From the NCBI RefSeq assembly GCF_001677475.2, contig NZ_CP015229.1: a stretch of DNA of 64,000 nucleotides; one strand, 5' to 3'. The position numbers were made by a program, and so were the translations under genes. The DNA comes from Escherichia coli. Its GTDB lineage: Bacteria > Pseudomonadota > Gammaproteobacteria > Enterobacterales > Enterobacteriaceae. The stretch's first letter is position 1; each line of letters starts with the position of its first letter. Under the pieces are notes generated by a model that ran no database searches, had not been told where the DNA came from, and worked only from the letters and a program-made list of their open reading frames with translations. Shown here piece after piece: positions 1 through 42,240 of this stretch.

Positions 1-3000
1 GTTCGTATAGGTACCGACAAAATCAATGCTATAGCCTGACTCTGTAGTCTGAACGCCGTATGAGTCAGTGATTTTGATCATGCCGCGCTGCTGGAAACGG
101 TAGAAATCGTCACAGGAAATGATGTCGTTAATCCCGGCGATGGAGACGCCACCACTGATTTTCTGCATAACAGCATCTTCATCGGGAGTTACATCCACCT
201 GTTTATCCAGCGTCTTCACATCCCAGTTACCCGATTTGGTGCCTTTGAAGGTAAAGATAATCTCCACGTCTGCGCGCTGGCTGTCGAAGTCCAGCGACTT
301 AATGCGAACGATATCACCGGCACAATCGTAGTATTGGCCTACACGCCATGAGCGATCGCCGATAACAAGGAACTCATTCGCATGGTTAACCAGATCAGGA
401 TCAACATCCAGAATGCCTTTATTTATTGCATCCTCCACCAGCGGGCGCAGGCGTTTGATATCCGTCGCGGCCTTCTGAGTACGGTTCAATAATTTCTCAT
501 AGCGGGAAATGGCTTGAGAGATATTAGCCTTGCGCTGAATGGCGCTTTTCAACGACGCGCGATACTGTGCTAACAACATACGGTCTGTGTGATGGACACT
601 CCCCCAGCGGGCCTTCCAGTCTGCGTTATCAGCTGCTTTGGCCATTACCGCCTGTTTGAATTTAGCTACCTCGTCGGTGCTCTTTTCAAATTCCGCTTTG
701 CTTCGCTCTAATTCAGCGGTAAGTACCTCCACATCCTCGCCAGCTGCGTGCTGCGCCTTGATGTAGTTCTGAAGGTCGATAGTAGCCTGTTCTTTCTGGC
801 GAGCGCGTTGCGCGGCTTTCGCCTTATCCATTTGAACCTGCATCATTGCCAGACGTTCGCCATCATCCTTAGCGGTATACATCTGCATTTCGATCATATC
901 GTTGGCGTCGGCGTTCTCCATTTCTGACTTATCTGAACGGAGGATATCGGAGATCCAGCCTGCTTTACGCTTCAGCGTCTTAAGTCGGTATTCATCGAAA
1001 GAACCCTTGCCGCAGTAGTAATGAACGCGAACGCTTGCACGGTTGGAGCCAACTCGGGCACCGCGACCGTTACGCTGTGCGATACTGGCTGGTGTCCATG
1101 GCAACGTCAGATGATGGATGTCAGTCGTTCCTCGATGCAGGTTGATACCCACCTCTGCCTTTTTGTTGCAGATGATGATCGGAGTCCAGCCCTCCTGGAA
1201 GTCGGCTGCAATCTTTTCCAGACCGCCCAACGACATTTCATTTTGCTGCGCGATATAGGCGTCATACAGAGCCATTTGCTCGTTGTATTTCGCTATCTGT
1301 GCATCTGTTGGTTCATCCGGTAGCTCTTTCGGCGGTTTAACAGCTTTCAGTTTCTGACCGGTTTTGCCTGCCTCGGCAACCGTCTGAGCATTCAGGATCC
1401 CCACCTTTGAAGGTTCAAGGTTAAGAGCATTGCAGATAATGCGTTTGAGCTTCTGGTGTTGCGTTTTTTCATCGGTGAAGATGATTTGCTTACCTTCCGG
1501 GAAAAACTCCTTCAGCGTGGCGATCAGCTTCGCGTATTTGGGCGTAACGGGGTGAGTTACGGTCTGTTCGTCAATGCCAAACTTGGCCAGGCGCTTATTC
1601 ACTTCCTGCTCAAACGCTTCCGGAACCTGCAACTGAATAAACTCGCCCTTATCTATCAGGGAGTATTGCGATTGCTGCGTGATTGAATCATCACTGTCGT
1701 CGTCTTCGCTGGTGGCTTGTTTAGGCAAACTGTCCGCCAGCTGCTGCACCGCATCGGCGTACTCCGGCAGGAAACGATAGGTGATCCGGCGATAGTACAG
1801 GTCCATGTCAGTACATACGCGGTCCATATCCCTGATTATTGAGAAGATCGGACGGGCTTTCTCGTGCTCAATCACGCCGTCTTCATTAACCGAGGTCGTT
1901 ACGCCATTGTTGGCTTTTGCTGCCGCTTCCGCCTGCTGACGCAATTCTTCATACGCCGCCAGTTGTTCTTCAGTAAGTGGTGCATCCTGCTGGTGTTCGT
2001 CCAGCTCCGGGATCTCCACGGTATCCTTAACGTCTTCCGCCGTTTTAAGCGTTACCCAGCGATGGAATATACCGCGCAGCGCATCAAGGTTTTCAAAGCC
2101 CACCAGCGCCATTTTTTCTTCAACTTCACCGCTGATTTTCTGTACCGTTTCCAGCCTGGTCTTGCCGAAGAATTTAACGAAGTCATCAGGACCGTAGATC
2201 CCCATCTTCTGCCAGTATTCCTTCGGCAGAACATGAGAAAGCATGTTGTATGCATCGATCGGGGTGTTAACGACTGGCGTTGCAGTCAGGAGAACCGGTC
2301 CGCGCCCGCCATTCTTTTTCATCAGGTACGCGTTTTTAATTGCCATATCCCGCGCCGATTGCGCCACCGCACTGGTGGGCAGATAGGCCAGTTGTGACGC
2401 TTCGCGACCATTTTTATAGCTATTGCGGTAGTTGTGGCCTTCGTCGGCGATCACGCTGTCGAAGCCCATATCCTCAAAGTACGGATACTTCTCTGCTTTT
2501 TCGGTACCGGTATCTGAATACTCCGACAATACCCGGCGACGCGCCGCCTCTTTGCGATGGGAATCGGAATCCATTGCGCTGGCCACACGTCCGGCAGCAA
2601 CGAAGTCATAAAGCATGTCTTGTGCATGCTCATCTACGGTGTCATCACGTAGCGGAATGCGGGCGTATTGTTCTTTGGTAAACACGACTGCACGGTAATT
2701 TGAGTGCGGGATCGCATTCATCCGCGCCGTGATAGTGGCTTCATCTGCCAGCTTAAGAGCATCGCGCATAACTGGAGTGCCATCAGCACCAAGAACAGGT
2801 TTACCGTTCTCATCGAGCACCGGCACCTGGCGAATCTGATCGCCATCCATCAGCACATCAAGACCGACGAACAGGTAGTTACTGAATGCCTCTTCACTCA
2901 GGAATTCTTTTGCTTCGTAATACCAGTTTTCCAGCACTGATTTAGGCACTACATACGCAGTACGGGTGGAGCGACCGTTCTCATAGTTGAACGCCTCAAG

Positions 3001-5598
3001 TGCCAGCGCGGTCGTGGTTTTACCCAGCCCGGTGCCGAAGCCCAGGATGCCGCGCCCATCTTCGGACAGTCGGCGCACCTCGCTATTCTGGTAATCAAAT
3101 GGCTGACGCTTACCGCTTAATCCCTTCAACCCAAGCGGATCGCCAGAGTGTTCATACGGGATATTGCTATTGAACACATCGTTGTATTTGGCAACCAGCT
3201 CATCGTAGCGATCGTGCGTCTTGATCCACTTATTGAACTGGTCCTCAAGCAGTGCCATCTGCTCGCGGTAGCCGTTCGCCGTCGCGCTATCTTTGCCACC
3301 GATACGCGCACCATTGAGATACTTTTCCAGCTGTGCCGGGAACCCGGTCGCGTTTTCACCTGATTTACGGTCCCACTCGTAGCGGATCTCGCCTGTTTCT
3401 TTATCCTTGCGCTGGACGACACCGTATCGGTGCCCGACGAACAGACCATCACCACCGTGATAGGTGTCAGAAACCATTTCGTCGCCTTCCAGCTGCACTG
3501 ACTGCACATAGCGCAGATCCGGATAGCCGTTTTTCTGCAAAAACTCCAGAATGACGGAGCGGTCGAACCAACGGCTATTGAGCTTAAAGCGGATATTCTC
3601 TGCTGGCGTCTTGATGCGCTTCTCTTCGATCGCTGCCAGCTGATTAAGGACGTTGTTCTTTACTGGACCGTCGGGGAGTGTGGCAAGGAATTCCTGTTTT
3701 GGAGCCACTATCTCGTTAATGTCGCCGCTGGTGGCGCGGGCGAACGGAACAATCCCGCCATACGGTGAAACCGCAATACCAGGGGTGCTGGCCAATAAAT
3801 TAAGCAACTCTTCATCACTGGCTGGCAGTTCGCCGGTAAACGCAAGGCGGAAATCATCGAGCTGGATTGGATCGCGGGTAAGATCGCTATAGAGATAACG
3901 CAGGGTGTCCTGATAGCTGGTGGAGTCATAACTGGCGCTGGAATCATGCGTAACCAGCTTTCCTGTCAGCTCGTCAGAAATAGTGCCATCCAGCTTAATT
4001 GCCCCACGGAAAGCAAACCAGGCGCGCGCACCGCTTCCCGATAATTTAGCTATCGGACCGCGACCGGGGTTACCAAAACGGTCAATCTCTGCCTGCAAAC
4101 GGGATACCAGAGAAAGGCGCTTCTGTTCGATTTGTTCAGCACTATGCCCGGCGGCCTTCATATCCTGATATTCAATTAACATCCGGCCAATCATCGCCCC
4201 GCGATACAAGCGTTCACGGTATTTTTCAGGCTGGCTGTTAATCCAGTCCACCAGCTGCACCATATCGTCGCTGATTGATGTGGTGTACTTATCGCGGACA
4301 TTTGCCATCTGGGTAAATGTCATACCGAGACGGCCTTCTGTTGTAGTCAGGTTACGCTGAAGAGCCTCCCAGCTATCCGCGCCATAACTGGCAGCATCAA
4401 TCTTAAGCTCCTTACCAGCATCAGCTTCAATCCAGCGACCACCAGCATATTTTTGCCATACGCCATTAATCAGGCGCATTTCCCCTTCATCAACAACATC
4501 TGCGGTCGGTGACGGTTCAGCCATATCGAGCAAAGACCAGTCGATACGACTTTCGAAACGATGAATCAGCTTCGCTTTAAGAGCCTGGTTATCAATCTGC
4601 CCGTCGGCACGAACCTCAATACGCCCCTGGAAGCCCTTTTCCTGGGTACCATGAACAAACCGGCGGCCATCCTTTTCAAACCACTTGCCAGAAATAAACG
4701 TTGGCCAAAGCACATTTGCCGATTCAAGAGTGCTTTCATCCACCAGGGGGATTTTCTCAGCCATCTCTGCCGGATGTTTGCGCATCAGCACCACATCAAC
4801 GACTGTACTGGTCCCGTTTGCGTCAAAAGTACCGGTAGGCAAGCGGTGGGCACCAAGAAATTCAGCTTTCCGTGATAGGCGCAGGCGTAACCGCTTCATG
4901 TTTGAACCTGAAACAATGGACGGCGGCACAATCACGCACATGAATCCGCCTGGCTTTATCTTGTCCAGCATGCGGAGCATGAAGTAAGAACCCATGTCCG
5001 TTTCTTCTGCGTAAGGCTTATCGATGTTGCGTGTGTTATCACGACCGCCGAACGGAACGTTACCCACAACATGGTCGAATGAATCGTTAGGTGTGCTTAT
5101 AGCCAGCTGTTCGAACGGGGAAATCTGTACGCTGTCTTCCGGGTGTAACAACTGGTTTATACGACCGGAAACACTGCTGATCTCAGTCGCGGTCATCACC
5201 GTACCAACCGGTTTTGTCTCATTAAAAACGCCAGTTCCCGCCGATGGTTCCAGAGTGTTACCTACGTCCGCGCCGTAGAGCTTCATGATCTCCCAGACAC
5301 CTTCAGCGATCGGCTTTGGTGTGTAATATTCGGAGACGGACCCGCCAATGCCGCCTTCACCGGTGTACCCAGCCAGGATCTGGCGCTGTTCATCTGTCAG
5401 TGTCGCGCCGTCCACCAGCGAATTAAGCAAATCTATCGCCTTCTGATTCGCCTCCCGGCGCAGTCGGTCATAGCTTTTGCCTTCCACCTTTTCCACGCCG
5501 TATTTAATCGGCGCTCGGTGAGATGTTATTGCCCTAATGTATTTCAATATTTCGCTGACACTTGAACAGCGAAACACCCCCATAGATAGCTTGTTCAT
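1..5598 (-). CDS. darB: DarB-like antirestriction protein, N-terminal methyltransferase plus helicase domains; partial, C-terminus lies beyond window start
   Basis: Reverse-strand frame opens at ATG 5598 behind an AAGGA RBS and stays open to position 1; it is absent from the ORF track because it has no stop in the window. Translation shows an amino-methyltransferase-like motif (GNVPFG), Walker A (GFGTGLGKTT) and DEGH helicase motif. Position next to portal/protease/lyz/ssb matches P1 order. Confidence 0.75.
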   Translation of the reverse strand, partial: MNKLSMGVFRCSSVSEILKYIRAITSHRAPIKYGVEKVEGKSYDRLRREANQKAIDLLNSLVDGATLTDEQRQILAGYTGEGGIGGSVSEYYTPKPIAEGVWEIMKLYGADVGNTLEPSAGTGVFNETKPVGTVMTATEISSVSGRINQLLHPEDSVQISPFEQLAISTPNDSFDHVVGNVPFGGRDNTRNIDKPYAEETDMGSYFMLRMLDKIKPGGFMCVIVPPSIVSGSNMKRLRLRLSRKAEFLGAHRLPTGTFDANGTSTVVDVVLMRKHPAEMAEKIPLVDESTLESANVLWPTFISGKWFEKDGRRFVHGTQEKGFQGRIEVRADGQIDNQALKAKLIHRFESRIDWSLLDMAEPSPTADVVDEGEMRLINGVWQKYAGGRWIEADAGKELKIDAASYGADSWEALQRNLTTTEGRLGMTFTQMANVRDKYTTSISDDMVQLVDWINSQPEKYRERLYRGAMIGRMLIEYQDMKAAGHSAEQIEQKRLSLVSRLQAEIDRFGNPGRGPIAKLSGSGARAWFAFRGAIKLDGTISDELTGKLVTHDSSASYDSTSYQDTLRYLYSDLTRDPIQLDDFRLAFTGELPASDEELLNLLASTPGIAVSPYGGIVPFARATSGDINEIVAPKQEFLATLPDGPVKNNVLNQLAAIEEKRIKTPAENIRFKLNSRWFDRSVILEFLQKNGYPDLRYVQSVQLEGDEMVSDTYHGGDGLFVGHRYGVVQRKDKETGEIRYEWDRKSGENATGFPAQLEKYLNGARIGGKDSATANGYREQMALLEDQFNKWIKTHDRYDELVAKYNDVFNSNIPYEHSGDPLGLKGLSGKRQPFDYQNSEVRRLSEDGRGILGFGTGLGKTTTALALEAFNYENGRSTRTAYVVPKSVLENWYYEAKEFLSEEAFSNYLFVGLDVLMDGDQIRQVPVLDENGKPVLGADGTPVMRDALKLADEATITARMNAIPHSNYRAVVFTKEQYARIPLRDDTVDEHAQDMLYDFVAAGRVASAMDSDSHRKEAARRRVLSEYSDTGTEKAEKYPYFEDMGFDSVIADEGHNYRNSYKNGREASQLAYLPTSAVAQSARDMAIKNAYLMKKNGGRGPVLLTATPVVNTPIDAYNMLSHVLPKEYWQKMGIYGPDDFVKFFGKTRLETVQKISGEVEEKMALVGFENLDALRGIFHRWVTLKTAEDVKDTVEIPELDEHQQDAPLTEEQLAAYEELRQQAEAAAKANNGVTTSVNEDGVIEHEKARPIFSIIRDMDRVCTDMDLYYRRITYRFLPEYADAVQQLADSLPKQATSEDDDSDDSITQQSQYSLIDKGEFIQLQVPEAFEQEVNKRLAKFGIDEQTVTHPVTPKYAKLIATLKEFFPEGKQIIFTDEKTQHQKLKRIICNALNLEPSKVGILNAQTVAEAGKTGQKLKAVKPPKELPDEPTDAQIAKYNEQMALYDAYIAQQNEMSLGGLEKIAADFQEGWTPIIICNKKAEVGINLHRGTTDIHHLTLPWTPASIAQRNGRGARVGSNRASVRVHYYCGKGSFDEYRLKTLKRKAGWISDILRSDKSEMENADANDMIEMQMYTAKDDGERLAMMQVQMDKAKAAQRARQKEQATIDLQNYIKAQHAAGEDVEVLTAELERSKAEFEKSTDEVAKFKQAVMAKAADNADWKARWGSVHHTDRMLLAQYRASLKSAIQRKANISQAISRYEKLLNRTQKAATDIKRLRPLVEDAINKGILDVDPDLVNHANEFLVIGDRSWRVGQYYDCAGDIVRIKSLDFDSQRADVEIIFTFKGTKSGNWDVKTLDKQVDVTPDEDAVMQKISGGVSIAGINDIISCDDFYRFQQRGMIKITDSYGVQTTESGYSIDFVGTYTN

Positions 5599-5664: not shown

Positions 5665-8395
<2,731 letters not shown>

Positions 8396-12644: not shown

Positions 12645-12953
12645 TCAATATACGATCTGGTCTACATGATCACCAAAATCATCGTCGTCGTCCTCATCGC
12701 CACCATCTACTGCTGGCCAATCAACAAACCAGCCAGCGTAAAGATGCAGCGTTCGGAGAACATCACTTGCGGGAGCATCAAGGGTGTTAACGAATCCCAT
12801 ATAGCTATTGGGATTTGCTCCAGCTATGGCTTCAGCGATCATGTCCTCGGTAATGTCACCGGAGATAATGCTTAAACGCCCGGAAACTTCTTCATTATCA
12901 TCAAATTCGATAATGGCATCTCCACCTAATGGCGCTGCGATTTTAATCTGCAT
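12645..12953 (-). CDS. small highly acidic protein (C-terminal DGGDEDDDDDFGDHVDQIVY), last gene of the dar operon
   Basis: Track ORF; overlaps the ddrB-like stop by 11 nt; function unknown. Confidence 0.5.
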   Translation of the reverse strand: MQIKIAAPLGGDAIIEFDDNEEVSGRLSIISGDITEDMIAEAIAGANPNSYMGFVNTLDAPASDVLRTLHLYAGWFVDWPAVDGGDEDDDDDFGDHVDQIVY

Positions 12954-13724
12954 TATTTAGCTCCTTTGCCACACCTAATAACAGTTCCAGCAATCCGTCA
13001 CCATTCATCAGTGATGCGGCAGCGGCCTCTTTGTCATGATACAACTGAAGAGCCATAGAGAATACTTCCGTTGCTGACGTTTTGGAAATAGTCGGTGATT
13101 TCTGCCGAATTTTCCCGGTGTTACTTACTGAGGCTGGCGGGTATACCTTCGCCATATAAATATTACTCAATCGAGATCTGAAGCACCATTCAGGCTTGCC
13201 ACGCCCACCGATATTGACGAAAGATGGCTTATCCCCTTCAACATTGGCCTTCAGGAATGACCGGGCTTTCTCTAACAAACCAGGGTTACTGTACTCAAGA
13301 TGATGACCCAGCTCGTGCCACAGTGCACTTGCATTTTCATCGTTCAAATTGACAGCAACAACACCATTTAGATTTGCATATGCCCTTCCCTGGTGGTGAA
13401 CTACCTTTGATAAGGTCGATATTTTCCCGCCGGTCAGGCGATAAATATCAGCAAGTTCCTTGCGCAGGTCTATCCCACCATTCTGTCCAGCGCGGGCTTC
13501 TTCCACTTCTTCTGTGATAAAAGAGTCGGCCCACTCAAGAGCTTTTTCTTCAGATACGGATGAGTTTGCGATCGCACTGTTCATGGCAGATAACACTTTC
13601 TCGTGGACCGAACCCATACTTCGCTGATTCATTTGCCAGCGTGTCTGCGGGTTATATGAGAATCGCTTAAGTAGTTGGTCAAGCTGCTCAAGTTCTTCTT
13701 CACTGACATACTTTTTAGCCTCAC
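12943..13724 (-). pseudogene. ddrB: 3' fragment of IS-interrupted ddrB-like gene (carries HELGHH zincin-like motif)
   Basis: Reading across the IS target duplication rejoins this frame to the upstream fragment (...PGIIGE|AKKYVSEEELEQL...). Confidence 0.6.
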
Positions 13725-13789
13725 TATTAGACGTCAACTAGTTTTGCCGACTCGCGCCAACTATACTGGCCGCACCCTTCAGGGCGACA

Positions 13790-14545
13790 TCAAGTCGCGC
13801 TTGTTACTGCCTTCGCTGTCTTTTTCCTGTAGCTTTCCCCTTTCAGTTCGAACATATATCCGTGATGGATCAGCCTGTCTGCCGCAGCCACCGCCATAGT
13901 CTCATCCACGAAGATGCTGCCCCACATGCTGAACGGATGGTTACTGGTTATCACCAGGCTCCCACGTTCATAGCGATGCGCTATTAACTCGAACAGCACA
14001 CCCGTTTCGGCACTATCGCGTTTGACATAGCCAAGATCATCCACCACTATCACCCGGTAGCGATCCAGTTTCAGTAGCAGCTCATTCAGTTTCAACTGAG
14101 CTCTGGCTTTACGTAGTTCCTGCAACAGCTCTCCTGCGCTGTAGAACCGGGCCCGGTAGCCCTGACCTACTACGCCATCCACGATCGCTGCCGCCAGATG
14201 GCTTTTCCCCAACCCGCTGGCTCCGAACAGCAGAACGTTTTCTCCTGCATCAACCCAGTCTGTCGTTTCACAGAGTTGCCGGAACTGAGCTCCATTCAGT
14301 TCCGGCACCTGACTGAAGTCGTATTCGCTCAGCGTTTTGGCAACTGGCAACCGGGCCTCCTTTTTATAACGACGCAGTTTTTCACTCTCGCGCCACAGGA
14401 GTTCTTCATTGCATAGCGTCAGAAGATAGCGCGATGGTGTCCAGCCTTCTGCCAGCGCTCGTTTTTCCAGAGCGTGCCATTCAGCTCCAACTCGTGTCAG
14501 GCGTAGTTTACGCAGGCTATGTTCAAGGTGATGGATATTGCTCAC
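13790..14545 (-). CDS. istB: IS21-family helper ATPase IstB
   Basis: Walker A GASGLGKSH, Walker B VIVVDDLGY, ITSNHPFSMW motif typical of IstB/DnaC-like AAA+ proteins. Confidence 0.9.
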   Translation of the reverse strand: MSNIHHLEHSLRKLRLTRVGAEWHALEKRALAEGWTPSRYLLTLCNEELLWRESEKLRRYKKEARLPVAKTLSEYDFSQVPELNGAQFRQLCETTDWVDAGENVLLFGASGLGKSHLAAAIVDGVVGQGYRARFYSAGELLQELRKARAQLKLNELLLKLDRYRVIVVDDLGYVKRDSAETGVLFELIAHRYERGSLVITSNHPFSMWGSIFVDETMAVAAADRLIHHGYMFELKGESYRKKTAKAVTSAT

Positions 14546-16041
14546 TGCGAACCTCCCTTGCCACGCAGTAGTTGCTCATAACTGCTCAGGTTATGCTGTA
14601 TCACATTGACTACCGGCAACGCCTTTTCTTTTATACCCAGGAAGCGCATCAGCCGGTGCAGATCCACGTTTCCCGGGGTATTCAGCATCTGCTCCATACC
14701 TTTTGCCACGACTGAGATATCGTCGTATCCTGCAGCCAGTTTCAGGGCATGTACCATCAGCCTTCCTGCCATATCGGGCTCCAGATGATTACATAAGCGA
14801 CGCCACAGCCTCCGCCATTCATCGTCCGGCAGGATGTCATTTCTCAGCGTTGCATGGCAGAACGCACCGGGCTTTTTTGCCAGACTGTCGATCACATGTC
14901 GGAAGTCGATACGACGGGCCCGCGTCTTCCCTTTTTCTGGTCTGACGCGAGGGCAGCTCATGACCTCGCTGCTGCCAACGTAACAGCTCAGACGATCGTC
15001 CCATAACCTGACCCGTAACAGTTGACCTACAAGCCGGGAAGGTACGCTGTAGACGACGTGCTTCACATTGATGGTACTGCTGCGACTAACCCTCACAGTC
15101 AGCTCATCATAGTCAGCACTGCGACGAAGCGGCAGCGGTTTCAGATGAAGACGTTCTTCCTTGACCAGATCCTGATTGTTACGGTTGTGCCGCATAACCT
15201 GCTGAGTGATGAAGGCCTGATATTCTTCTATGGTGCTGAAGTCGTTACTGCCCCGCAGTATCAGCGCCTGACAGATACGCCTTTTCAGATGTCCGTGGGC
15301 ACTTTCAACCGAGCCATTTTCGTGGCCCCGACCGGCATTATTGTGTACGCCCTGCATTCCGTAGTGCTGACAGAGAGTAGCATAACGCTCAGTCAGCTCG
15401 CGGCGTCCATCTTCGCCCTGTTGTTTCCATGCTGCCCTCAGGCTGTCCGTTTTATGTTCTACCGGCACTCCGCCCAGTTGTCCGAGGGCTTCCTGCAGGC
15501 CTTCAGCCAGAGCAGAGAAGCTCTCACCACCCAGAACAACCCGCATCCAGCTCCAGTGGCTCCATTCCAGACGGAAGTGATACAACTTATGCGCCAACAA
15601 CTTACCGGCGATGGTGACAACTACACCTTTCAGTTCAGTAAAGTCCGACAGGCCTCGCAGGCCGGGCTGATGTTGCTGGCGGAACATGACCTCCTGCTCT
15701 GTACCATACTGTAGTTTCCATTCGCGAACCCGCCGTTGCATTGTTCTTCGAAGGCTGTTGGGGTACTGGCCGGGATATTTATCCTGTAGCATCTCCAGTA
15801 GAGTTGTTGGTGTCAGAGCCGGCCTCTCTTTCAACAGAGGAACAAGCATGCTGTCCCACACAGCTTCCAGAGGATCTTTGCGTGTGCGCCAGTGCCGAAC
15901 ACTGTTTTTTGCCCACTCTCCTTTTTCGATCCGACGACCAGAACGGACTGAGATACCAGCCTTCATGGCCGAGATATGCTGAGTTATACCTTTCTTACGC
16001 TGAGTCATATAGTAACTGACCTGAGAAGTATTGAGCGTCAC
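14542..16041 (-). CDS. istA: IS21-family transposase IstA (true start may be an internal ATG)
   Basis: N-terminal HTH pattern like IS21 IstA, overlaps istB start in the typical istA-istB arrangement. Confidence 0.8.
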   Translation of the reverse strand: MTLNTSQVSYYMTQRKKGITQHISAMKAGISVRSGRRIEKGEWAKNSVRHWRTRKDPLEAVWDSMLVPLLKERPALTPTTLLEMLQDKYPGQYPNSLRRTMQRRVREWKLQYGTEQEVMFRQQHQPGLRGLSDFTELKGVVVTIAGKLLAHKLYHFRLEWSHWSWMRVVLGGESFSALAEGLQEALGQLGGVPVEHKTDSLRAAWKQQGEDGRRELTERYATLCQHYGMQGVHNNAGRGHENGSVESAHGHLKRRICQALILRGSNDFSTIEEYQAFITQQVMRHNRNNQDLVKEERLHLKPLPLRRSADYDELTVRVSRSSTINVKHVVYSVPSRLVGQLLRVRLWDDRLSCYVGSSEVMSCPRVRPEKGKTRARRIDFRHVIDSLAKKPGAFCHATLRNDILPDDEWRRLWRRLCNHLEPDMAGRLMVHALKLAAGYDDISVVAKGMEQMLNTPGNVDLHRLMRFLGIKEKALPVVNVIQHNLSSYEQLLRGKGGSQ

Positions 16042-16129
16042 GCCATTTCCTGTTGGATCATGTAAATGACACTCAGGTTACAAAACCGGCCAGAATAATC
16101 GGCGCCAGGCGGACTGAGTTATTGTCGTC

Positions 16130-18346
16130 TCATACCTCACCAATAATGCCAGGGAGAATATTGCCGTTAGGATTAAACGCTCGCGAAAGGAAGAGTTTCA
16201 GCGCCCCCATGCCCTCCGATGCTTCAATATCACCAATAACCCGGTTAACAATGGCCGCACTCTTCGGATTAGCATCCGCCAACGCTCTGGCTACAATTTG
16301 CAGGGACGATACGACCTCACGCTGCATATCCGTCCTGATCTCATCAATAAACTCTGGCGTTATGCCGTGCTCTTTAAGAATATCCCTGCCTTCCGCCGTT
16401 ACCCCATCGATATCACCGACATGTTTATTAACCCGACTTTGCAATGCCTTAAATGCCTTCAGAATTCCACGGGAATCATCCGCTTTACTAACGGCCTTCC
16501 TGAATGCTGGCAAGAAGTCTGAGTTAACCTCATTTTGTTGATCGGCCCACTGAATGGAGGCTTCTTTCATCTCGTCCAGAGTCAGATCACCCAACGCGGT
16601 ATGGTCTGTGAATATGAGCGACAACCTCTGAACCATTTCTGCCAATGGTGATGCCGAATGCGCCGCGCTAAGGAATGCTTTCACCCTGGTTGGGCGAATG
16701 GAAAACCAGTCAATAGCTGGTGGCATATCTCCGTTTTGTATCGCCTGCGCTATCTCATCAAAGCCGTCGCGCCCAAGGGAGGATGCGTGATTTAACAATC
16801 CGCGAAGTAACGAATTGCTGATACCGAATAATCGGCACCATTTATTCACGTCGGCAACAGGCATTCGAACAAAATGCGCAAGCACTTGTACAAGCTGTTC
16901 ATCCTGGGGATCTGTACGGGAAAGCAGCCTGATCAGATGAATAATGTCTTTGATGCCGGATGCCCGATGTAATAGCAAGCTGGTATATGGAGCAACACCG
17001 TTGTAACTACCGCCGGAAACGGACTCGAAAAGACCGCCGGATATCCCTTGCATGCCTTCGTTTTCCAGTTCCTGAGACACCTGGCGAAGGATATCCTGTA
17101 ACGACACATCGCCGCCGCCAAACATATCCCCCAGCGCCTGGCCCTGGTGCTGTAACTCATCATTGATACGTTGAGCCATCAACTTAAAGGCGGTGGCCAT
17201 ACGCTTCGCGCTACGGTTATTCGCGACGATGAACAACGCGAGTGCTTTCACTTCCGGGGCCGTTTCGCTGAACATATCCCCCTGAGCAATAACATCGGTA
17301 ATATGCTGGCCTGACTCCTTCGATTGCCTTACCAGGTCTACCGCATCTTTCAATGCCGCCAGCGCCTTTTTATCGAGGCTATCCGCTGTCTCAATGCCAT
17401 CAACAATAGTTGTCACAGCCTGCTTGTGCGCTTCTCCTGATAAAGCCTGCATCTGGACAAAATCATTGGCTGCCGCATTAAGCGCCGTCAGAACATTACG
17501 CATATCCGGATCAGGTTCTTCTGCAACCATCCTTACCAGGCGCGCATCCTTATATGCCTTGGCAAAGATCGCGTTTTGTATACGGTCAACAAGTTGCCGC
17601 GTTGGTCGCCCATCTTCCGTTACAAGGCCAGCAGCCTGTGTGGCACCAACTTGCGTCATGAATCCGCGAATAAACGCGTCATTACTGCGGCTAAGCAGAT
17701 CTCCGCTTTCTGACGGATTAAACAGCGCCATCATCGCCGGTGTTATGCTGTCGGCATCAACAAAAGCCTTTTCACTGGCTGCCATTTCCTGAAGATCAGA
17801 AATATTTGAGTCCTTGGCAAACTGAACGCGGTCAACCTTAGTTAACCGGCGGCGCACCAATACAGGAGCCGTCATTGATTCAACCTTTTCAGGTCGTATG
17901 CCGAATTCGGTCGCATGTTCAATCAGGTACTCACGATACCGATCCGCATTGCCGTCCTGATAGGCTTTAATGATTCCCATGGTCCGTCCATTACCTGACT
18001 CAACGGCATTGTCCTCACCAATTATCGGCGCGCCATGGCTGGATAAACCGGAATCGGTAAGCTGAGCAGGCCGCAAATCTTTGGATATCTGGTTAACCTG
18101 AAGAAGGCTGGATGCGCGGGTCCGGTCGCGCGGCTGAAGTTCCTGGGGATAGTCAGGATTAATTTTCCCATCCAGAGTATTGGATACCAAAAGAGCTGAG
18201 GCATCGACGATATCAAACGCTGTTTTTACCTCGTCTCCCTTCGCTGTCACCACATACGAAACCCGCCCATAATCGGGCAGGTTCTTAAGCAGCTCGATCA
18301 GCGTTTCTATGCTGGTGGCAATTACCACCTGATCGCTTAAGCTCAT
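16130..18346 (-). pseudogene. ddrB: 5' fragment of IS-interrupted ddrB-like gene; 738-codon ORF ending with an IS-encoded Val-stop
   Basis: ORF runs from the dar operon into the IS terminus and stops 2 codons inside; position after darA-ddrA matches P1. Confidence 0.6.
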
Positions 18347-18358
18347 CCCTGTTACGCC

Positions 18359-18724
18359 TTATGCTGCCTCTTCAATGTTGGCGGCTATCCATGCCGCCGT
18401 GTGCTGTTTAACCTGGTCCAGGTCGATGTATGTGCCAACATATTGACTCAAGTCCTGCAAGGTACCGATAAATGCATCTGTGCTCTGATCGACGAATTTA
18501 TCAGCCAGGAAATCAGCAACCAGTTTTGGCACACCATCATGTTCCGAAGGTTGTTTTTCCTCGCCACTACCACCGCCGGACGCGCCGTACCCCATCTGTT
18601 GCATGATCTGGTCAATTTCATCGCTGATATCCAGCAACTCCATGCCACTCGCGGTAGCAGCTTTGGACATCAGAGAATCCAACTTGTCGCTGAGGTCCAT
18701 TAACTCAATAGCTGATAGTGTCAT
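18359..18724 (-). CDS. DdrA-like small acidic protein
   Basis: Track ORF, overlaps darA stop; assigned by position. Confidence 0.4.
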   Translation of the reverse strand: MTLSAIELMDLSDKLDSLMSKAATASGMELLDISDEIDQIMQQMGYGASGGGSGEEKQPSEHDGVPKLVADFLADKFVDQSTDAFIGTLQDLSQYVGTYIDLDQVKQHTAAWIAANIEEAA

Positions 18725-20640
18725 GCCGCTACCCCCGCTTTCTGGATTGCTACCAGCAGATCAGCCAGGTGGCGAGCAGCGCCATTAACCAGCTCTTCGT
18801 TTTCCTCAAAACGCCCGGCAGCCTGAAGGGCTGCAATCGCTTCCCGGACATTACCCCGGGCGTTACGGATCTCCGCCATGTCAGTGCTTTGCATATCCAT
18901 CACGTTATTGAGATATTCAATGGCTTTATTAGCCTCTGCATCTGCTTCGCTAACCGTTTCATCAGGCTGTGCCGGGGCAGGTTCTGGCTGAGTAATCTCA
19001 CCGACTTCGGCCTGCAATGCATTGATCATGCTCTGCACCATTTTCTCGGTGCCAGCGCCCCCCGGAAACGCAATATTGGGGAAAGTTTTTTGAAACTGAG
19101 TTTTCAGCATTACGCGGAACTCGTCTGGTGAGCTGGTGGCCAGCTCCAGAGCTTTTTGTGCATATTTGCCAAACGGACCATTAGTAAGTGTCTTCGCCAG
19201 GAAGTCGAAAGAATCCTCGCGAGGCAATAACTTCAGGTCGTACTCACTCATTTGCTGATCAGAAAGCGGGGTATCGTAAGTAGCAATGCCGTAGCGTGCA
19301 TATTCATAATACGGGTCACCTTCATCAGGGCGCGGCAGAATTGCTTTGTTACCTTCAGGTATTGCGCCAGGGGCCGCCGGACGCATTTGCAGGGCATATC
19401 GATATGCACCTACAGAGACTTCTGGTTCAGGCGAAGAGCTACCGGTATCCTCCGCTGGTTCAGGTTCGACGTTTTCCGGTTTATGTTCTTCTGGTTGGAC
19501 CAGGTATTCCGATACATTACCCGCTTTATAGGCTTTAAACAGCTTGCCGATCGCATCTGCCATGTCCACACCCTGTATGGATTTAGCCTTGATCATGTAC
19601 ACGCTGCCATCCGAATCGGTTAACTGGATATACCCTTCGCCGTCCTCAATGAATTGCTTCATTGATGCTCCATTACTGAGCGTCACTTCCCCGTTCATAT
19701 GCATACGATTTTTGATACTGGCAAGGCGATCCGTCAGCGCGCGCGAGTGCCCACCAGTCATCCCCGCTGGATCAATGGTATCGCGCCCACCTGTGCGATT
19801 GAGCTGATCAATCTCCGTCTGCAAACGCTCATTCTCTTCATAAAGAGAATCCGCTTCCGATGCAACAGCGTTAATTTTCTGCTCCAGATCTACCTTCTGC
19901 CCTTCTACCGCTGCCACCTGATCCGCGAGGTCGCTCATGGCATCCTCTTTCTGGTCACTGTCAGCCTGTAGTTGGGTTATTTCATCAACCAGGGCTTTTT
20001 TCTTCTTCTGCGCACGCTGGAATTTTGCCGAGTTTTTCTCTGCAAGGTTGGCAAGTTTCATGGTGACCTGCGCCAGCGTCATATCACGTCCACTCATCGG
20101 AGCAACGGTGTGAGTAACGTCTTTTTTATTCAGTAAGAACTGGAAAGCAACCAGCGTATCGCTATTGGTGATCCGGTTTTCCGCTGTCGGGCTATGAAAC
20201 AGAATGCTGATAGTCTGACCATCACTGAGCGGAATAATGGCTGGCAGGACCGGCAGCCCGTTAACGTTACGTGCCCGGCCAATTTCAGCACCGCCGATCG
20301 CGCGCGCGCCGCTCTGGGCCACCTCCCCCGTTTTATCACTCCCCGCAGAGATTCCGGTACCATTCAGCTTCTGGTTCAATGCCCGGACAAATGCCTGCAT
20401 GGTCCGGTGTAACTGCAAACGAGTAGAACTAATCGCCTCCAGTAAATCCGTAGCACACCAGTGGATCGGCGTGTCATAGAAGAACGTAGCCTCGATTTCC
20501 TCCAGGGTGTTGGATTCCGTCATCAGATAGCGGTCCTCACCGGCCATTAATGCGCGATATTCATCATCAGTCACTGGCGGGGGAAGCACGTCAAGCCCAG
20601 GCTTGATCGTCACCCCTTTATTGATATTTAACTGTTCCAT
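18721..20640 (-). CDS. darA: DarA-like capsid-delivered antirestriction protein, 639 aa
   Basis: Size and position (hdf-darA-ddrA-ddrB) match P1; coiled-coil central region. Confidence 0.6.
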   Translation of the reverse strand: MEQLNINKGVTIKPGLDVLPPPVTDDEYRALMAGEDRYLMTESNTLEEIEATFFYDTPIHWCATDLLEAISSTRLQLHRTMQAFVRALNQKLNGTGISAGSDKTGEVAQSGARAIGGAEIGRARNVNGLPVLPAIIPLSDGQTISILFHSPTAENRITNSDTLVAFQFLLNKKDVTHTVAPMSGRDMTLAQVTMKLANLAEKNSAKFQRAQKKKKALVDEITQLQADSDQKEDAMSDLADQVAAVEGQKVDLEQKINAVASEADSLYEENERLQTEIDQLNRTGGRDTIDPAGMTGGHSRALTDRLASIKNRMHMNGEVTLSNGASMKQFIEDGEGYIQLTDSDGSVYMIKAKSIQGVDMADAIGKLFKAYKAGNVSEYLVQPEEHKPENVEPEPAEDTGSSSPEPEVSVGAYRYALQMRPAAPGAIPEGNKAILPRPDEGDPYYEYARYGIATYDTPLSDQQMSEYDLKLLPREDSFDFLAKTLTNGPFGKYAQKALELATSSPDEFRVMLKTQFQKTFPNIAFPGGAGTEKMVQSMINALQAEVGEITQPEPAPAQPDETVSEADAEANKAIEYLNNVMDMQSTDMAEIRNARGNVREAIAALQAAGRFEENEELVNGAARHLADLLVAIQKAGVAA

Positions 20641-20641: not shown

Positions 20642-21253
20642 TTAATTTCCTGCTTTCAGTTGCTTAAGACGACGTTTGAGTTCGCCATTCCGTGCCTTTT
20701 CGTTATTGAGTCGGCCCGTCTCCTTATCCAGCTTCGCCCGCAAATCAGTGATCTGCTGTTGATTGAAAGACACCGAATTCTGCGCGGACTTATAAGCGGC
20801 AACCACCTGAGCATTCCGCTGTTTTGCTTCTTGCAGGCGCTGAAAGTTGGATTTAACTGCCGGTTTCTTGTCTACCGGATTGGCAACACGCTTCGCTTTG
20901 GCGATCAGTGATTTCTGGAATTTTGCGGAGTTTTTGCGGGCCGCCTGTCCCATGACGGTACCAAGCGTCTTGATATCCGGCGACTGAGCGTTAGGAATAG
21001 CTTTTCCATTCAGTTTCACAGACGATATATCGCCAGTATCGTTTACCTGTATGGCAAGAATTTGTCCGTCGTTAAGAACCAGCTTTGCGGTTTTAACTTT
21101 AACGCCATCTTTCGTTGTTGCGCGGTTGCTGGAGTCAACCTCAATTACCGTAACACCGGTTTTATTGATCGCCGCGATAAGGGATTTCAGCCCCTTTTCA
21201 TTAACCTGGTCAAAATCGACCGTTGCATACTTATTTTTCGTCATCTGACACAT
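20642..21253 (-). CDS. Hdf-like protein (dar operon)
   Basis: Track ORF directly upstream of darA; coiled-coil basic protein. Confidence 0.45.
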   Translation of the reverse strand: MCQMTKNKYATVDFDQVNEKGLKSLIAAINKTGVTVIEVDSSNRATTKDGVKVKTAKLVLNDGQILAIQVNDTGDISSVKLNGKAIPNAQSPDIKTLGTVMGQAARKNSAKFQKSLIAKAKRVANPVDKKPAVKSNFQRLQEAKQRNAQVVAAYKSAQNSVSFNQQQITDLRAKLDKETGRLNNEKARNGELKRRLKQLKAGN

Positions 21254-22000: not shown

Positions 22001-22060
22001 AAGTTCCCTCCTACGTTGTCAGGAGGTAATGGTATGCAAAGTAACTTCTCATCTGGTTGT

Positions 22061-36865: not shown

Positions 36866-37310
<445 letters not shown>

Positions 37311-37400
37311 GTTATTTCAAGCCTTTTAAGCCCCTTCAAAAATGCCCGCATCTCCTTTTAAAGCGAATTTTAAAGAAGCTCCAAAAGCAGGTCAATTAAG

Positions 37401-37916
37401 TCAACCTGCCTTTGCTTTTACGCTGTGTGAGAGAATACTTGCTTCAATTTCTTCCAAAATCTCTCTGACTTGCTCGTCGGACATATCAACCAACATCAAT
37501 GCAGCCAGGCGTTTACGACCCTCTAGTTGCAGCAGTTCTTGAGTATCTTTGTCCAATAAGCGTAGTACCGTTTCAACGCCTTTCCTTGCGAACATGCTGG
37601 TAAGAGCCTCTCGTTCTTCACTAGTAAGAAACGAGAGCATCTCAGTTAGCTGATCGCCTTGACTTAAACTGCTTTGTGATTCTTGTATTTTTGGTGGGTT
37701 TCCGTTGCCTGTTTTTAACCATTCAAGACTAACACCTTCACTTTCTGCAATGCGTACCAATATGCTTTCTCGAGGTTCTGGTGTGTTTCCCTTTTTAAAA
37801 TAGCTTTGTAACGTATTGATATTTATTCCCCAGGCTCTGGCTGCAGCACTTCTTGATGGATACCGTCTAATAAGATATGCCATGCGCTCTACGATAGGTT
37901 CTTTTGCTTGCTCCAT
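37401..37916 (-). CDS. Mu-like prophage repressor (c-like), N-terminal HTH
   Basis: Leftward gene divergent from ner/A/B; HTH-like segment RSAAARAWGININTLQSY. Confidence 0.6.
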   Translation of the reverse strand: MEQAKEPIVERMAYLIRRYPSRSAAARAWGININTLQSYFKKGNTPEPRESILVRIAESEGVSLEWLKTGNGNPPKIQESQSSLSQGDQLTEMLSFLTSEEREALTSMFARKGVETVLRLLDKDTQELLQLEGRKRLAALMLVDMSDEQVREILEEIEASILSHSVKAKAG

Positions 37917-38107
37917 AAAAGTACCTCTAGGTATTTTTCTGCATAAAGGTTCTTTTCCATCTATCTAATTGAATAGAAAGGAAAATTCAAAAATACAAAC
38001 AAAATACAAAAAATACCTTGTAATGGTACTTTTTGTGATCTACGATTTTATCCATACGGATATCCGACCGGATATCCGCGCGGGTAACTTTGTAGGGTAA
38101 AGGAAAG
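37917..38107. promoter_or_regulatory. divergent early promoter/operator region with tandem palindromes CGGATATCCG and AAATACAAA repeats
   Basis: Two copies of the 10-bp palindrome separated by 2 bp just upstream of ner. Confidence 0.5.
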
Positions 38108-38359
38108 ATGAGACAAAGAGAAGATCGCGACCGCGATTGGCCTTCGCTAAAGATTCAGCTGGCGCTCAAAGATAATGGGTGGTCTTCCTTCCGGGAGCTT
38201 TCACTCCATGCTGGTTATGCTCAGGATTCACTGAAAGCGGTAGTTCGTACACCGAACAAAAAATACGAACGCGTAATTTCTGACGCTATAGGTGTACCGC
38301 CAGAAATCATCTGGCCCAGCCGGTATCGTAACGATGGATTTATCAGGAAGGCGTCGTGA
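38108..38359 (+). CDS. ner: Ner-like DNA-binding protein
   Basis: Pattern DW...L...SL.ALS...GY...L......P...E.II...L...PE.IWPSRY matches Mu Ner/Nlp. Confidence 0.8.
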   Translation: MRQREDRDRDWPSLKIQLALKDNGWSSFRELSLHAGYAQDSLKAVVRTPNKKYERVISDAIGVPPEIIWPSRYRNDGFIRKAS

Positions 38360-38360
38360 T

Positions 38361-40457: not shown

Positions 40458-40532
40458 ATAAAAAAACAGTCCGCGGGAACGGACTGTTAAACAAGGAAAA
40501 CAAAGTGAATCTGTAATGATGGAGGAAATACT

Positions 40533-41486
40533 ATGACTGATATTGATGATGTTTTCAACACTATTAATACGTTGATCAACGAGGGCGACAAGCCCCAGGA
40601 AGATATTGCTGATGAGGCCGGAATGTCTCCGGCAACACTCTCGGCTCTGCGTAAAGGAGAATACAAAGGCAATGTCGAAGGTATGCATGACAAATTACAG
40701 GAATGGTATCGGGTCTGGCAAAAAGGGCAGAATTTGTCAGGTGCCCCCGGCGTTGTGAAGACCCAGACATTTTGTGATTTGCATGAGCTGTTTAAAACAG
40801 TGCGCTCACTCGGGATTATCAGTGTTGTTGTTGGCGTACCGGGTGTCGGCAAAACTTTTGCTGCACGGGAATATTGCCGCAAGACAGCTAATGCCTGGAT
40901 GGTGACGCTTGCACCGGCACATTCGAGCGTAACGGAATGCCTCCTTGAAATAGCATATGCGCTGGAAATTAATAATCCGGGAAGAAATAAGGGGAATATA
41001 ACCCGCGCCATTCGCAGAAAACTGGGCGGTGGTAAAGAAACCAGTGGCCGTGTTAACCCCCTGCTGATTATTGATGAAGCTGATCACTTAAGTGTGGATG
41101 GTCTGGAGCAATTACGCGCCATTCAGGATGCTACTGGCGTGGGGATGGTTTTAATTGGCAACCCGAAACAGATGGCGGATGCCACCCGTCGTGGGACTGA
41201 TGAACTGGCTCGTTTGTTCAGCCGTTTTGCCATGACAAAACAACTGCGCAAAGTGAAAAAGACTGATGTGATGGCTGTAGCCAAAGCATGGGGAGTAACA
41301 CAGGAAGATGAGCTGGATCTGCTGATGAGGGTTGCCGAAAAGCCCGGGGGATTGCGTGTATTAACTCACACACTGAATCATGCGTGGCTGGCGGCGAAAG
41401 GTGCTGGTTCATCCCTGAATAAAAGTCACATAAAAGCGGCTTTTAAGGAGGCTTACAGCAACCCTAAGTTGCTGAACTGGCAGTAA
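40533..41486 (+). CDS. Mu B-type AAA+ target-DNA activator
   Basis: Walker A GVPGVGKT, Walker B LLIIDEADHL; directly after transposase. Confidence 0.85.
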   Translation: MTDIDDVFNTINTLINEGDKPQEDIADEAGMSPATLSALRKGEYKGNVEGMHDKLQEWYRVWQKGQNLSGAPGVVKTQTFCDLHELFKTVRSLGIISVVVGVPGVGKTFAAREYCRKTANAWMVTLAPAHSSVTECLLEIAYALEINNPGRNKGNITRAIRRKLGGGKETSGRVNPLLIIDEADHLSVDGLEQLRAIQDATGVGMVLIGNPKQMADATRRGTDELARLFSRFAMTKQLRKVKKTDVMAVAKAWGVTQEDELDLLMRVAEKPGGLRVLTHTLNHAWLAAKGAGSSLNKSHIKAAFKEAYSNPKLLNWQ

Positions 41487-41498
41487 GGGGCATAAACC

Positions 41499-41726
41499 AT
41501 GATGTCACGGAATATCAAAATGGCAACGGAAGTAAAGACCTGGTTACAGGAGCGCGGCAGCCACGTCAACGAATCCTGGCTGGGCGTGGCCCGCCCGGTG
41601 CTTGAAATCACCTGCCCGCCACCAGAGCTGGTCAGAAACGCTGTCAGGATTATGGAGCATAAATCCGGGGTTGCCCGTTCAGTATGGACGGCCCGTCTTA
41701 ATGGTTGTCAGATTATCTGGAGATAA
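41499..41726 (+). CDS. hypothetical early protein (Mu kil position)
   Basis: Position only. Confidence 0.35.
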
Positions 41727-41728
41727 CG

Positions 41729-41959
41729 ATGAGTATCAGGTCTGGAAAATATATTGAGTGGGTTAAACATTGTCAGCGCCACGGAGTGCCTTTGACGACA
41801 TATAAATGCCCAGGATGTGGCAAACAACTTATGACGCAAAGTTCCCCCGAAAATGAAGTATGGGACTCCTTCACATGTTGTCCGTGGTGTAGTGGTGTTT
41901 TCTTTAAACAGGTAGAAGGCGCGAAAATAAAGGTCAGCGCAGTTATTCAGAATCAATAA
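41729..41959 (+). CDS. zinc-ribbon protein (CPGCG ... CCPWCSG)
   Basis: Two Cys pairs; track ORF trimmed to the ATG. Confidence 0.45.
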   Translation: MSIRSGKYIEWVKHCQRHGVPLTTYKCPGCGKQLMTQSSPENEVWDSFTCCPWCSGVFFKQVEGAKIKVSAVIQNQ

Positions 41960-41970
41960 GGAGAAACAAA

Positions 41971-42240
41971 ATGGCAAAAGTAATCTTTGAATTTAACCGC
42001 ATGGAAGATGTTGAGTTTCAGAAAAAAGGAGGTTTCTTTGTAGGAATGAGTGTGCAACTGGAAGAACGGTCTCCTAAGGAGCAAATCGGACCACATGACG
42101 TAATGGCAGGCATTATCAAGAGCATGGCTCCTGAAATTATTGAAAAAGCAACCCAGGAGTTGTTGAAGTCAGCCAGACAACTTGGACTGGAAGCCGAAGG
42201 CGAGTTATTCCGGTATAAACCGGATGCAGCCAAACATTAA
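41971..42240 (+). CDS. hypothetical early protein
   Basis: Track ORF in a tight same-strand array. Confidence 0.4.
   Translation: MAKVIFEFNRMEDVEFQKKGGFFVGMSVQLEERSPKEQIGPHDVMAGIIKSMAPEIIEKATQELLKSARQLGLEAEGELFRYKPDAAKH

Follow-up and report, generated by a model that had tools for sequence, protein, structure and literature searches.

Phage P1 carries the 'defence against restriction' (Dar) system, of which DarB is an internal head protein of ~250 kDa. The Dar proteins are packaged in the head and ejected together with the DNA (PMC9024508, PMC12810830). Their packaging is ordered, with Hdf and DarA starting the process, DdrA, DdrB and Ulx being needed, and DarB being added last (PMC12810830). 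About 40 copies of DarB per virion are loaded into the prohead via the first 30 residues, and these N-terminal 30 residues are enough to send a reporter protein into P1 heads (PMC9024508). The P1 system counters type I restriction by EcoKI and EcoBI; what darB, ulx and ddrB contribute against EcoB and EcoK has been described (PMC12810830). Protection acts in cis, covering only the DNA that the proteins arrived with (PMC12707154). The darB gene is archetypal: it has been sequenced and annotated since 2004, its genetics were addressed in 1987, 2017 and 2022, and hundreds of P1-like plasmids from Enterobacteriaceae carry it.

The window analysed here, a 64,000-nucleotide stretch of Escherichia coli DNA, is a composite: a P1-like plasmid prophage whose ddrB holds an ISEc10 element and whose pmgC holds a Mu-like transposable phage. 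Judged by alignment, positions 1-5598 are the 5' 83% of darB from a P1-type (Punavirus) plasmid prophage, and represent P1 darB itself, beyond a mere "DarB-like" gene:

1..5598, minus strand: darB, codons 1-1866 of an expected 2255, from the open frame and the alignment to P1; the 3' 389 codons lie past the left edge.

An earlier sequence-only reading had described more than 1,860 codons that do not reach the C-terminus, and translation bears this out. From the ATG at 5598..5596 to the left edge of the window, 1866 codons follow one another on the minus strand with no in-frame stop (the chance of this in random codons, computed for the darB frame, is ~1e-39), and the C-terminus is expected 389 codons past that edge. 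Comparison with P1 DarB (2255 aa), which that reading had proposed, identifies a gapless ortholog over residues 1-1866, with 98.87% amino acid identity and 21 substitutions; across the same residues, the codon differences are 80 synonymous and 21 non-synonymous. At the nucleotide level, the stretch is 98.2% identical to sequence annotated as darB in P1, P7 and 17 other punaviruses, and 1356 PLSDB records match the region. The product also matches PHROG 1685 end to end, as well as a PHROG named 'DarB-like antirestriction', the latter with a good match over aa 91-295 only. Against ten relatives, seven of the 21 substitutions are private (K493, K689, Q1415, W1471, S1640, D1642 and N1866), including the lineage-private R1471W within the Helicase_C region of the second SNF2 lobe. 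The gene here is an already known one, ordinary apart from its damaged host element.

The domain architecture agrees with this identity:

5509..5598, minus strand: capsid-targeting sequence, codons 1-30 of darB; no difference from P1 DarB in the first 40 residues.
4714..5343, minus strand: gamma-class N6-adenine methyltransferase domain, aa ~86-295, from Pfam N6_Mtase and Eco57I and from HsdM structures.
2419..3102, minus strand: first lobe of an SNF2-type ATPase, aa ~833-1060, from Pfam SNF2-rel_dom and ResIII and from the translation.
934..1260, minus strand: second lobe of the SNF2-type ATPase, aa ~1447-1555, from Pfam Helicase_C and the translation.

Profile searches place the methyltransferase and helicase domains above curated Pfam cut-offs: N6_Mtase at aa 145-291 (2e-8, 34.4 bits, cut-off 20.4), Eco57I methylase at aa 166-244 (32.3 bits, cut-off 25.3), SNF2-rel_dom at aa 849-910 (3e-11, 43.3 bits, cut-off 24.9), ResIII at aa 833-904 and Helicase_C at aa 1455-1517. 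The predicted order of N-terminal amino-methyltransferase and then SF2 helicase motifs can be read directly. The methyltransferase motifs are TP at aa 93-94, EPSAGTG at aa 117-123 (nt 5230-5250) and NVPF at aa 180-183 (nt 5050-5061); the first ATPase lobe carries the Walker A motif GLGKT at aa 857-861 and DEGH at aa 1052-1055, and the second carries motif VI, QRNGRGAR, at aa 1508-1515 (nt 1054-1077). In full-length P1 DarB, all domains visible to Pfam lie at aa 145-1517, a stretch that the window covers. The solved structures best matched by aa 86-267 are the type I HsdM 7eew_A and the EcoKI M entries 2y7c_B and 2ar0_A (E-values 1e-4 to 4e-4).

Such a combination could also be read as a cellular or plasmid defence enzyme of the type I/III restriction-modification, DISARM DrmD or Dpd kind, rather than as an anti-defence protein. 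Pairs of an adenine methyltransferase and an SF2 helicase are also found in restriction-modification systems, HsdM provides the best solved-structure matches, and there are weak local NCBIfam matches to DISARM DrmD, DpdE, a phospholipase-D anti-phage protein and a dnd restriction enzyme. However, these matches involve the helicase lobes only and reach 29-42 bits where the curated cut-offs lie at 500-1100 (DISARM DrmD 41.8/610, DpdE 30.1/500, dnd restriction enzyme 28.9/600), and no nuclease domain was found by Pfam in either the window part or full-length P1 DarB. With scores so far below the cut-offs, and with orthology (98.9% identity) to the genetically characterised P1 DarB, this reading is effectively refuted and retains next to no probability.

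A second alternative places the anti-restriction effect in the darB DNA rather than in its protein, with Chi and EcoKI sites triggering ClpXP-dependent restriction alleviation. Plasmids carrying darB, or only its first 350 codons, alleviated EcoKI restriction even with premature stops, via recombination dependent on Chi and EcoKI sites (PMC11109961), and the darB part of the window holds eight Chi sites whose relative positions match those in P1. Yet this effect acts in trans, within plasmid-carrying cells, and was offered by its authors as a caution on plasmid assays and not as the Dar mechanism (PMC11109961). Phage Dar, by contrast, protects in cis the DNA that comes from Dar+ heads, and needs packaged proteins (PMC12707154, PMC12810830). 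As an explanation of this gene, a DNA effect is very unlikely.

How the DarB protein itself would act has been stated to be biochemically undefined (PMC11109961). A hypothesis of translocation by a methylase-helicase has been put forward (PMC5512222), and we found in the literature neither a newer mechanism nor a report of methyltransferase or ATPase activity for DarB. From its motifs, the SNF2-type ATPase (GLGKT, DEGH, QRNGRGAR) would drive DarB along the incoming duplex, and the fused EcoKI/TaqI-like gamma-class N6-adenine methyltransferase (EPSAGTG, NVPF) would then render type I sites refractory. Methylation on the fly is a mode to which we give roughly even weight; occlusion or eviction of the restriction complex is a credible but less probable one, and something else altogether is improbable. 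That protection is seen only against EcoK and EcoB, and not against EcoA, speaks against adenine methylation being indiscriminate. The question of real interest here is how type I restriction is blocked by DarB in cis, and the present sequence adds nothing to its answer.

The surroundings of darB are also those of P1:

5599..5673, no strand: darB-prt divergent control region; 73 of 75 bases identical to P1 17237-17311.
5674..7383, plus strand: prt, portal protein, 569 aa; 99.1% identical to P1 Prt.
22029..22047, minus strand: late promoter LPdar of the lydA-lydB-hdf-darA-ddrA-ddrB operon, by position from P1 31212-31230 in the collinear alignment.
20642..21253, minus strand: hdf, Dar component and head-size determinant, 203 aa; 99.0% identical to P1 Hdf, with Pfam DarA_N.
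18721..20640, minus strand: darA, 639 aa; 97.8% identical to P1 DarA, with Pfam DarA_N and DarA_C.
18359..18724, minus strand: ddrA, 121 aa; 96.7% identical to P1 DdrA.

As the sequence-only reading had noted, darB is divergent from the portal gene, with prt starting at 5674 on the plus strand after a 75-bp spacer. In P1, this region holds the late promoter LPpro and a predicted sigma-70 promoter, PdarB (AF234172 annotation), and the LPdar site is nearly identical in sequence to that of P1. The exact Prt protein of the window is present in 3492 collection blocks. None of the ten Prt matches listed is a copy identical to the window; these are 96-98% relatives. In all eight darB-bearing relatives with identical Prt, darB has 2255 codons and ulx and lxc come after it; two others (L005 and L014) lack darB and ulx altogether. 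The DarB C-termini compared in ten relatives all differ from one another.

The same reading had joined darB and the darA operon into a 'complete Dar-type system'. This stands in part: the operon does lie at 12.6-22 kb and its hdf, darA and ddrA genes are intact, but ddrB is split after codon 737, so that the six Dar genes (Hdf, DarA, DdrA, DdrB, DarB and Ulx) are not all intact. Of the other two genes, darB is covered to codon 1866, so that a stop, frameshift or deletion further on is possible, and ulx, like lxc, would lie left of position 1, outside the window; the system as a whole may therefore not be called complete. The break in ddrB consists of the following:

16130..18346, minus strand: ddrB 5' part; 737 native codons run into the insertion sequence, which adds one foreign codon and a stop; 98.2% identical to P1 DdrB aa 1-737.
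13725..16134, minus strand: IS21-like insertion sequence of the ISEc10 family, 2410 bp, inside ddrB, from the break in P1 collinearity and the junction sequences.
14542-16041, minus strand: istA, within the ISEc10-family element, which has an NCBIfam IS21 family transposase match.
13790-14545, minus strand: istB, within the ISEc10-family element, which has a Pfam IstB_IS21 match.
12943..13724, minus strand: ddrB 3' remnant, P1 DdrB aa ~738-995; 97.3% identical to P1 DdrB aa 732-995.

The insertion is flanked by a 6-bp target duplication (CCTCAC at 13719-13724 and 16135-16140), and full-length copies of the element elsewhere in E. coli are 99.9% identical and belong to the ISEc10 family by annotation. 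It leaves the ParB-like domain (Pfam ddrB-ParB, aa 36-167) in the 5' part, while the 3' remnant carries the HELGH metallopeptidase motif (P1 residue 872). DarB-type protection against EcoB and EcoK is reported to need ddrB (PMC12810830, PMC9024508). The disruption may nevertheless not be a null, as the 737-residue stub would be near in size to the mature virion form of DdrB, which is ~76 kDa (PMC5512222). The ddrB::ISEc10 allele is therefore a small natural experiment, in which the ParB-like N-terminal part has been parted from the metallopeptidase predicted to process it.

Further damage lies at the other end of the P1-like DNA:

36866..37152, minus strand: pmgC 3' remnant; P1/RCS47 homology stops at 37152, inside pmgC.
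37153..64000, plus strand: Mu-like transposable prophage, left end onward, from Pfam and from an E. coli RM9088 chromosomal prophage.
37401-37916, minus strand: Mu-like repressor (Pfam).
38292-40457, plus strand: MuA (Pfam).
40533-41486, plus strand: MuB (Pfam).
43005-43529, plus strand: Gam (Pfam).
51261-52832, plus strand: Mu-type portal (Pfam).
57767-59311, plus strand: Mu-like sheath (Pfam).
60161-62026, plus strand: Mu-like tape measure (Pfam).

The prophage is 96.6% identical to the RM9088 chromosomal prophage, whose left end aligns from 37153, and copies of the Mu-like phage at other sites are 100% identical, suggesting that the insertion is very recent. The tail gene pmgC was scored as essential in P1 (PMC10695390), and within the 37 kb of P1-like genome that is visible, this essential morphogenesis gene is not intact. 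Because the Mu-like prophage is inserted in it, the P1-like element is probably unable to build virions, and capsid delivery of DarB by virions currently working in this copy appears doubtful.

The damaged element is not confined to one isolate. Using the truncated DdrB and the Mu-like repressor proteins as lineage probes, both the ddrB::IS and the pmgC::Mu-like junctions were found again, with 100% identity, in public assemblies that are independent, and both occur in sequencing run SRR24416076. The 100%-identical contigs come from SRR24416076, SRR3929499, SRR11608754, GCA_012665465.1 and GCA_018683295.1. None of these contigs reaches darB, those with ddrB stopping at the insertion sequence, and no record in complete E. 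coli genomes or PLSDB spans the P1/Mu junction.

These findings raise the question of whether darB is a decaying relic, a gene on its way to becoming a pseudogene on a defective plasmid derived from P1, currently functionless and with its frame open only as the damage is recent. Consistent with this, insertions interrupt both the essential pmgC and ddrB, the presence of the damaged element in several assemblies implies that it is kept as a plasmid with no need for virions, darB is non-essential in P1 (PMC10695390), and L005 and L014 do without darB and ulx despite an identical Prt. On the other hand, 5598 bases run on with neither stop nor frameshift, the 80:21 ratio of synonymous to non-synonymous differences from P1 indicates purifying selection over most of the gene's history, and the Mu-like insertion is so recent that decay is not to be expected yet. 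We consider a functionless relic possible, if rather unlikely. The spread of the element to several isolates, with darB still open on a plasmid whose pmgC is cut and whose ddrB is broken, also invites the proposal that DarB, perhaps with the 737-residue DdrB stub, is used independently of P1 virions and that selection keeps the gene, its open frame then reflecting more than a lack of time for decay. DarB might, for example, act intracellularly on DNA of the plasmid or DNA that enters, or be recruited by another resident phage; we hold such use to be very unlikely. The whole is, with high confidence, best explained as a P1-type darB that was recently stranded, its visible frame still open, on a crippled P1-like plasmid. 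For annotation, this settles what the first 5.6 kb of the window are and corrects the idea of a complete Dar system.

Among described systems, the gene is closest to P1 DarB (AAQ13985.1; AF234172 10469..17236) and to its counterparts in P7, RCS47 and other punaviruses, with which it shares the start codon, the N-terminal targeting sequence, the methyltransferase and SNF2 motifs, prt as divergent neighbour and the pattern of Chi sites. Compared over residues 1-1866, it differs from the P1 locus in its 21 substitutions (seven of them private), in the broken ddrB and in a host phage cut in pmgC. It also shares its plan with the DarB-like methylase-helicase 'polyvalent proteins' found in other phages and in conjugative elements (Iyer et al. 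2017, PMC5512222), in which an N-terminal helical region is followed by a gamma-class adenine methyltransferase and a SWI2/SNF2 ATPase, and for all of which entry into the cell together with DNA has been predicted (PMC5512222). However, these, such as the giant proteins of Bcep22-like, PEp14 and Parlo podophages, are distant, larger (3,000-4,600 aa) and multi-domain, whereas the protein in the window is the archetype. With HsdM (EcoKI M, PDB 2y7c and 2ar0; 7eew), DarB has in common a gamma-class catalytic core, these being the closest structures by sequence for aa 86-267; unlike HsdM, it lacks HsdS and HsdR partners, carries an SNF2 ATPase in the same polypeptide and counteracts type I restriction. 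Finally, phage T4 internal protein I (IPI*) and other capsid-delivered anti-restriction proteins resemble DarB in having an N-terminal capsid-targeting sequence and in being injected with DNA against a host restriction enzyme (PMC9024508). IPI*, however, is unrelated to DarB in sequence: it is small and inhibits a single enzyme stoichiometrically, as against DarB with its 250 kDa, predicted enzymatic nature and action in cis on DNA.

By sequence comparison, the gene at window 1-5598 (minus strand) is P1 darB, the archetype rather than a remote DarB-like protein. Translation from an ATG at 5598-5596 to the left window edge gives 1866 stop-free codons, an open run with a computed chance of about 1e-39. 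Both the coordinates and the codon count (more than 1,860) given in the sequence-only reading are exact, and no in-frame stop appeared on re-translation; the ORF is missing from the ORF list since that listing omits ORFs running off an end. The 5.7-kb region matches P1, P7, RCS47, SJ46 and other punaviruses over its full length at 98.0-98.4% nucleotide identity, and the matching punavirus records annotate the gene as darB. Residues 1-1866 form a gapless alignment with P1 DarB (AF234172 10469..17236, 2255 aa) that contains 21 substitutions (98.87% identity), the codon differences over these residues being 80 synonymous and 21 non-synonymous. Residues 1-40 do not differ from P1, the first 30 being the experimentally defined capsid-targeting signal (PMC9024508). 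Compared with ten relatives, seven residues are private to the window lineage; none lies in a catalytic motif, while one substitution, R1471W, falls within the Helicase_C match. Family matches occur in 1356 PLSDB plasmid records.

The proposed order of an N-terminal amino-methyltransferase followed by helicase motifs is borne out by a Pfam search, in which all matches exceed curated cut-offs, and by motifs read from the translation:

aa 117-123, SAM-binding motif EPSAGTG (translation)
aa 145-291, N6_Mtase (Pfam)
aa 166-244, Eco57I methylase (Pfam)
aa 180-183, catalytic motif NVPF (translation)
aa 833-904, ResIII (Pfam)
aa 849-910, SNF2-related domain (Pfam)
aa 857-861, Walker A GLGKT (translation)
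aa 1052-1055, DEGH (translation)
aa 1455-1517, Helicase_C (Pfam)
aa 1508-1515, motif VI QRNGRGAR (translation)

In full-length P1 DarB, every domain that Pfam detects falls between residues 145 and 1517, a span covered by the window, and Pfam recognises none in the C-terminal 389 residues beyond it. A reading as a defence enzyme (R-M, DISARM or Dpd) was rejected: the NCBIfam matches score 29-42 bits where the cut-offs are 500-1100, and are confined to the helicase lobes.

The neighbouring genes are also P1-like. As the earlier reading had it, darB diverges from the portal gene and the darA operon lies at 12.6-22 kb (identities to P1 in brackets):

5674 onwards, plus strand, prt (portal, 569 aa; 99.1%)
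12645-12953, hxr (98.0%)
12943-13724, ddrB 3' part, HELGH metallopeptidase portion
13725-16134, IS21-like ISEc10-family insertion sequence inside ddrB (2410 bp)
16130-18346, ddrB 5' part, ParB-like portion
18359-18724, ddrA (96.7%)
18721-20640, darA (97.8%)
20642-21253, hdf (99.0%)
21231-21674, lydB (98.6%)
21671-22000, lydA (100%)

The 75-bp darB-prt spacer shares 73 of 75 bases with P1, where the equivalent is annotated with the late promoter LPpro and a predicted promoter, PdarB. In P1 and all eight darB-bearing relatives examined, ulx lies directly 3' of darB; its expected place here is left of position 1. Two P1-like relatives with an identical Prt (L005 and L014) lack darB and ulx altogether (at ~9440-10000 of those loci), with lxc about 300 bp from prt, and this absence shows that the DarB arm of Dar is dispensable and at times lost in the P1-like plasmid family.

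Two other regions vary. Between ssb and hxr, where P1 has isaA, IS1 and isaB, window 10060-10737 (plus strand) encodes a protein whose C-terminal domain is Tad2-like (Thoeris anti-defence 2-like, PF11195/DUF2829), and this gene is common among P1-like plasmids; it is followed 3' by ORFs of 260 and 364 aa, neither with a family match. At 22461-28200, the cin invertase and invertible tail-fibre C-segment show rearranged matches at 88-96% identity to P1, compared with 97-99% for the rest of the P1-like part, a divergence expected as normal for a host-range cassette.

The claim of a complete Dar-type system is not supported. P1 collinearity is interrupted at 13724/16135 by the ISEc10-family element, which codes for IstA (499 aa; an IS21 transposase by NCBIfam) and IstB (251 aa; IstB_IS21 by Pfam). 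Six bases of P1 sequence, CCTCAC, are duplicated with one copy on each side of the element, and it is 99.9% identical to full-length family members elsewhere in E. coli. The DdrB frame is split after codon 737, continuing for one foreign codon and a stop, which parts the ParB-like N-terminal region from the C-terminal HELGH motif (residue 872). PMC9024508 lists DdrB as helping DarB into the capsid, and protection against EcoB and EcoK reportedly requires ddrB (PMC12810830); with ddrB broken, the window does not show a complete system. Nevertheless, the 738-residue stub may keep some function, because its size is near that of mature DdrB, which in virions is reported to be a processed polypeptide of ~76 kDa (~700 residues) (PMC5512222).

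A second lesion lies in the P1 tail gene pmgC, where homology to P1 and RCS47 stops at 37152:

37153-64000 (window end; right end beyond), Mu-like transposable phage
37401-37916, Mu-like repressor
38292-40457, MuA-type transposase
40533-41486, MuB
43005-43529, Gam
further along, terminase, Mu-type portal, sheath and tape measure

At the left end of this phage ATTCAAGATAA motifs recur, and from 37153 onward it aligns with the left end of a prophage that sits in nrfA of E. coli RM9088 and is 96.6% identical. An assembly artefact at the junction is ruled out by its recurrence in several public assemblies: exact-protein look-ups recovered the order repressor, pmgC remnant, tub, pmgB and sit at 100% identity in GCA_012665465.1, SRR24416076 and SRR11608754, and GCA_018683295.1 has the same repressor-to-sit arrangement with one mismatch to the window. 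The exact truncated DdrB occurs in six public contigs, one from SRR24416076. Since both lesions recur in this way, they belong to one circulating lineage. Other assemblies have this Mu-like phage beside unrelated chromosomal genes, with 100% identity up to 37152, so it was recently active. A temperate Mu-like phage is thus nested within a plasmid prophage (junction 37152/37153; pmgC remnant from 36866); across complete E. coli genomes, phages of this type occupy 400 chromosomal places and only one on a plasmid.

As pmgC is essential to P1 plaque formation (PMC10695390) and is cut here, the P1-like element is most probably unable to produce infectious P1 particles. DarB delivery would then not operate at present, and the open darB frame would reflect the recency of the insertions. 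That darB is instead a decaying relic is less likely; its sequence alone would fit a relic and a recently stranded intact gene alike.

Functional knowledge of Dar has been demonstrated for P1 only. There, DarB is a ~250-kDa head protein of about 40 copies, with its N-terminus as the targeting signal (PMC9024508). It joins the capsid after the other Dar proteins; Hdf and DarA are required for its incorporation, which DdrB and Ulx assist (PMC9024508, PMC12810830). Dar proteins exit the head together with the DNA and protect that DNA only (PMC12707154), and P1 without darB becomes sensitive to EcoB and EcoK (PMC11109961). The SNF2-type ATPase may carry DarB along the entering duplex, where the fused adenine methyltransferase would methylate DNA on the fly, as proposed previously (PMC5512222), or the DarB complex might block or evict the type I enzyme. 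Methylation-coupled translocation is favoured, at roughly even confidence, for a mechanism explicitly called undefined in 2024 (PMC11109961). That protection extends only to EcoK and EcoB speaks against methylation of an indiscriminate kind. It is very improbable that anti-restriction is instead a DNA-level effect of Chi sites in darB: such an effect is genuine on plasmids (PMC11109961) and eight sites are conserved in window darB, but it works in trans and leaves cis protection unexplained. These Chi sites (GCTGGTGG; 442-5419, three on the plus and five on the minus strand) keep their relative places in P1 darB, whose full gene has 11. The P1-like 37 kb of the window holds 17 Chi, three EcoKI, six EcoBI and no EcoAI sites.

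In summary, the darB feature is real but already known, and the ISEc10 cut mimicking DdrB processing, the nested Mu-like phage and the Tad2-like protein tell more than darB itself. Of the solved structures, those nearest to DarB by sequence are HsdM methyltransferases of type I systems, the EcoKI M protein among them; this agrees with the published assignment of the DarB methyltransferase to the gamma class, EcoKI/TaqI-like (PMC5512222).
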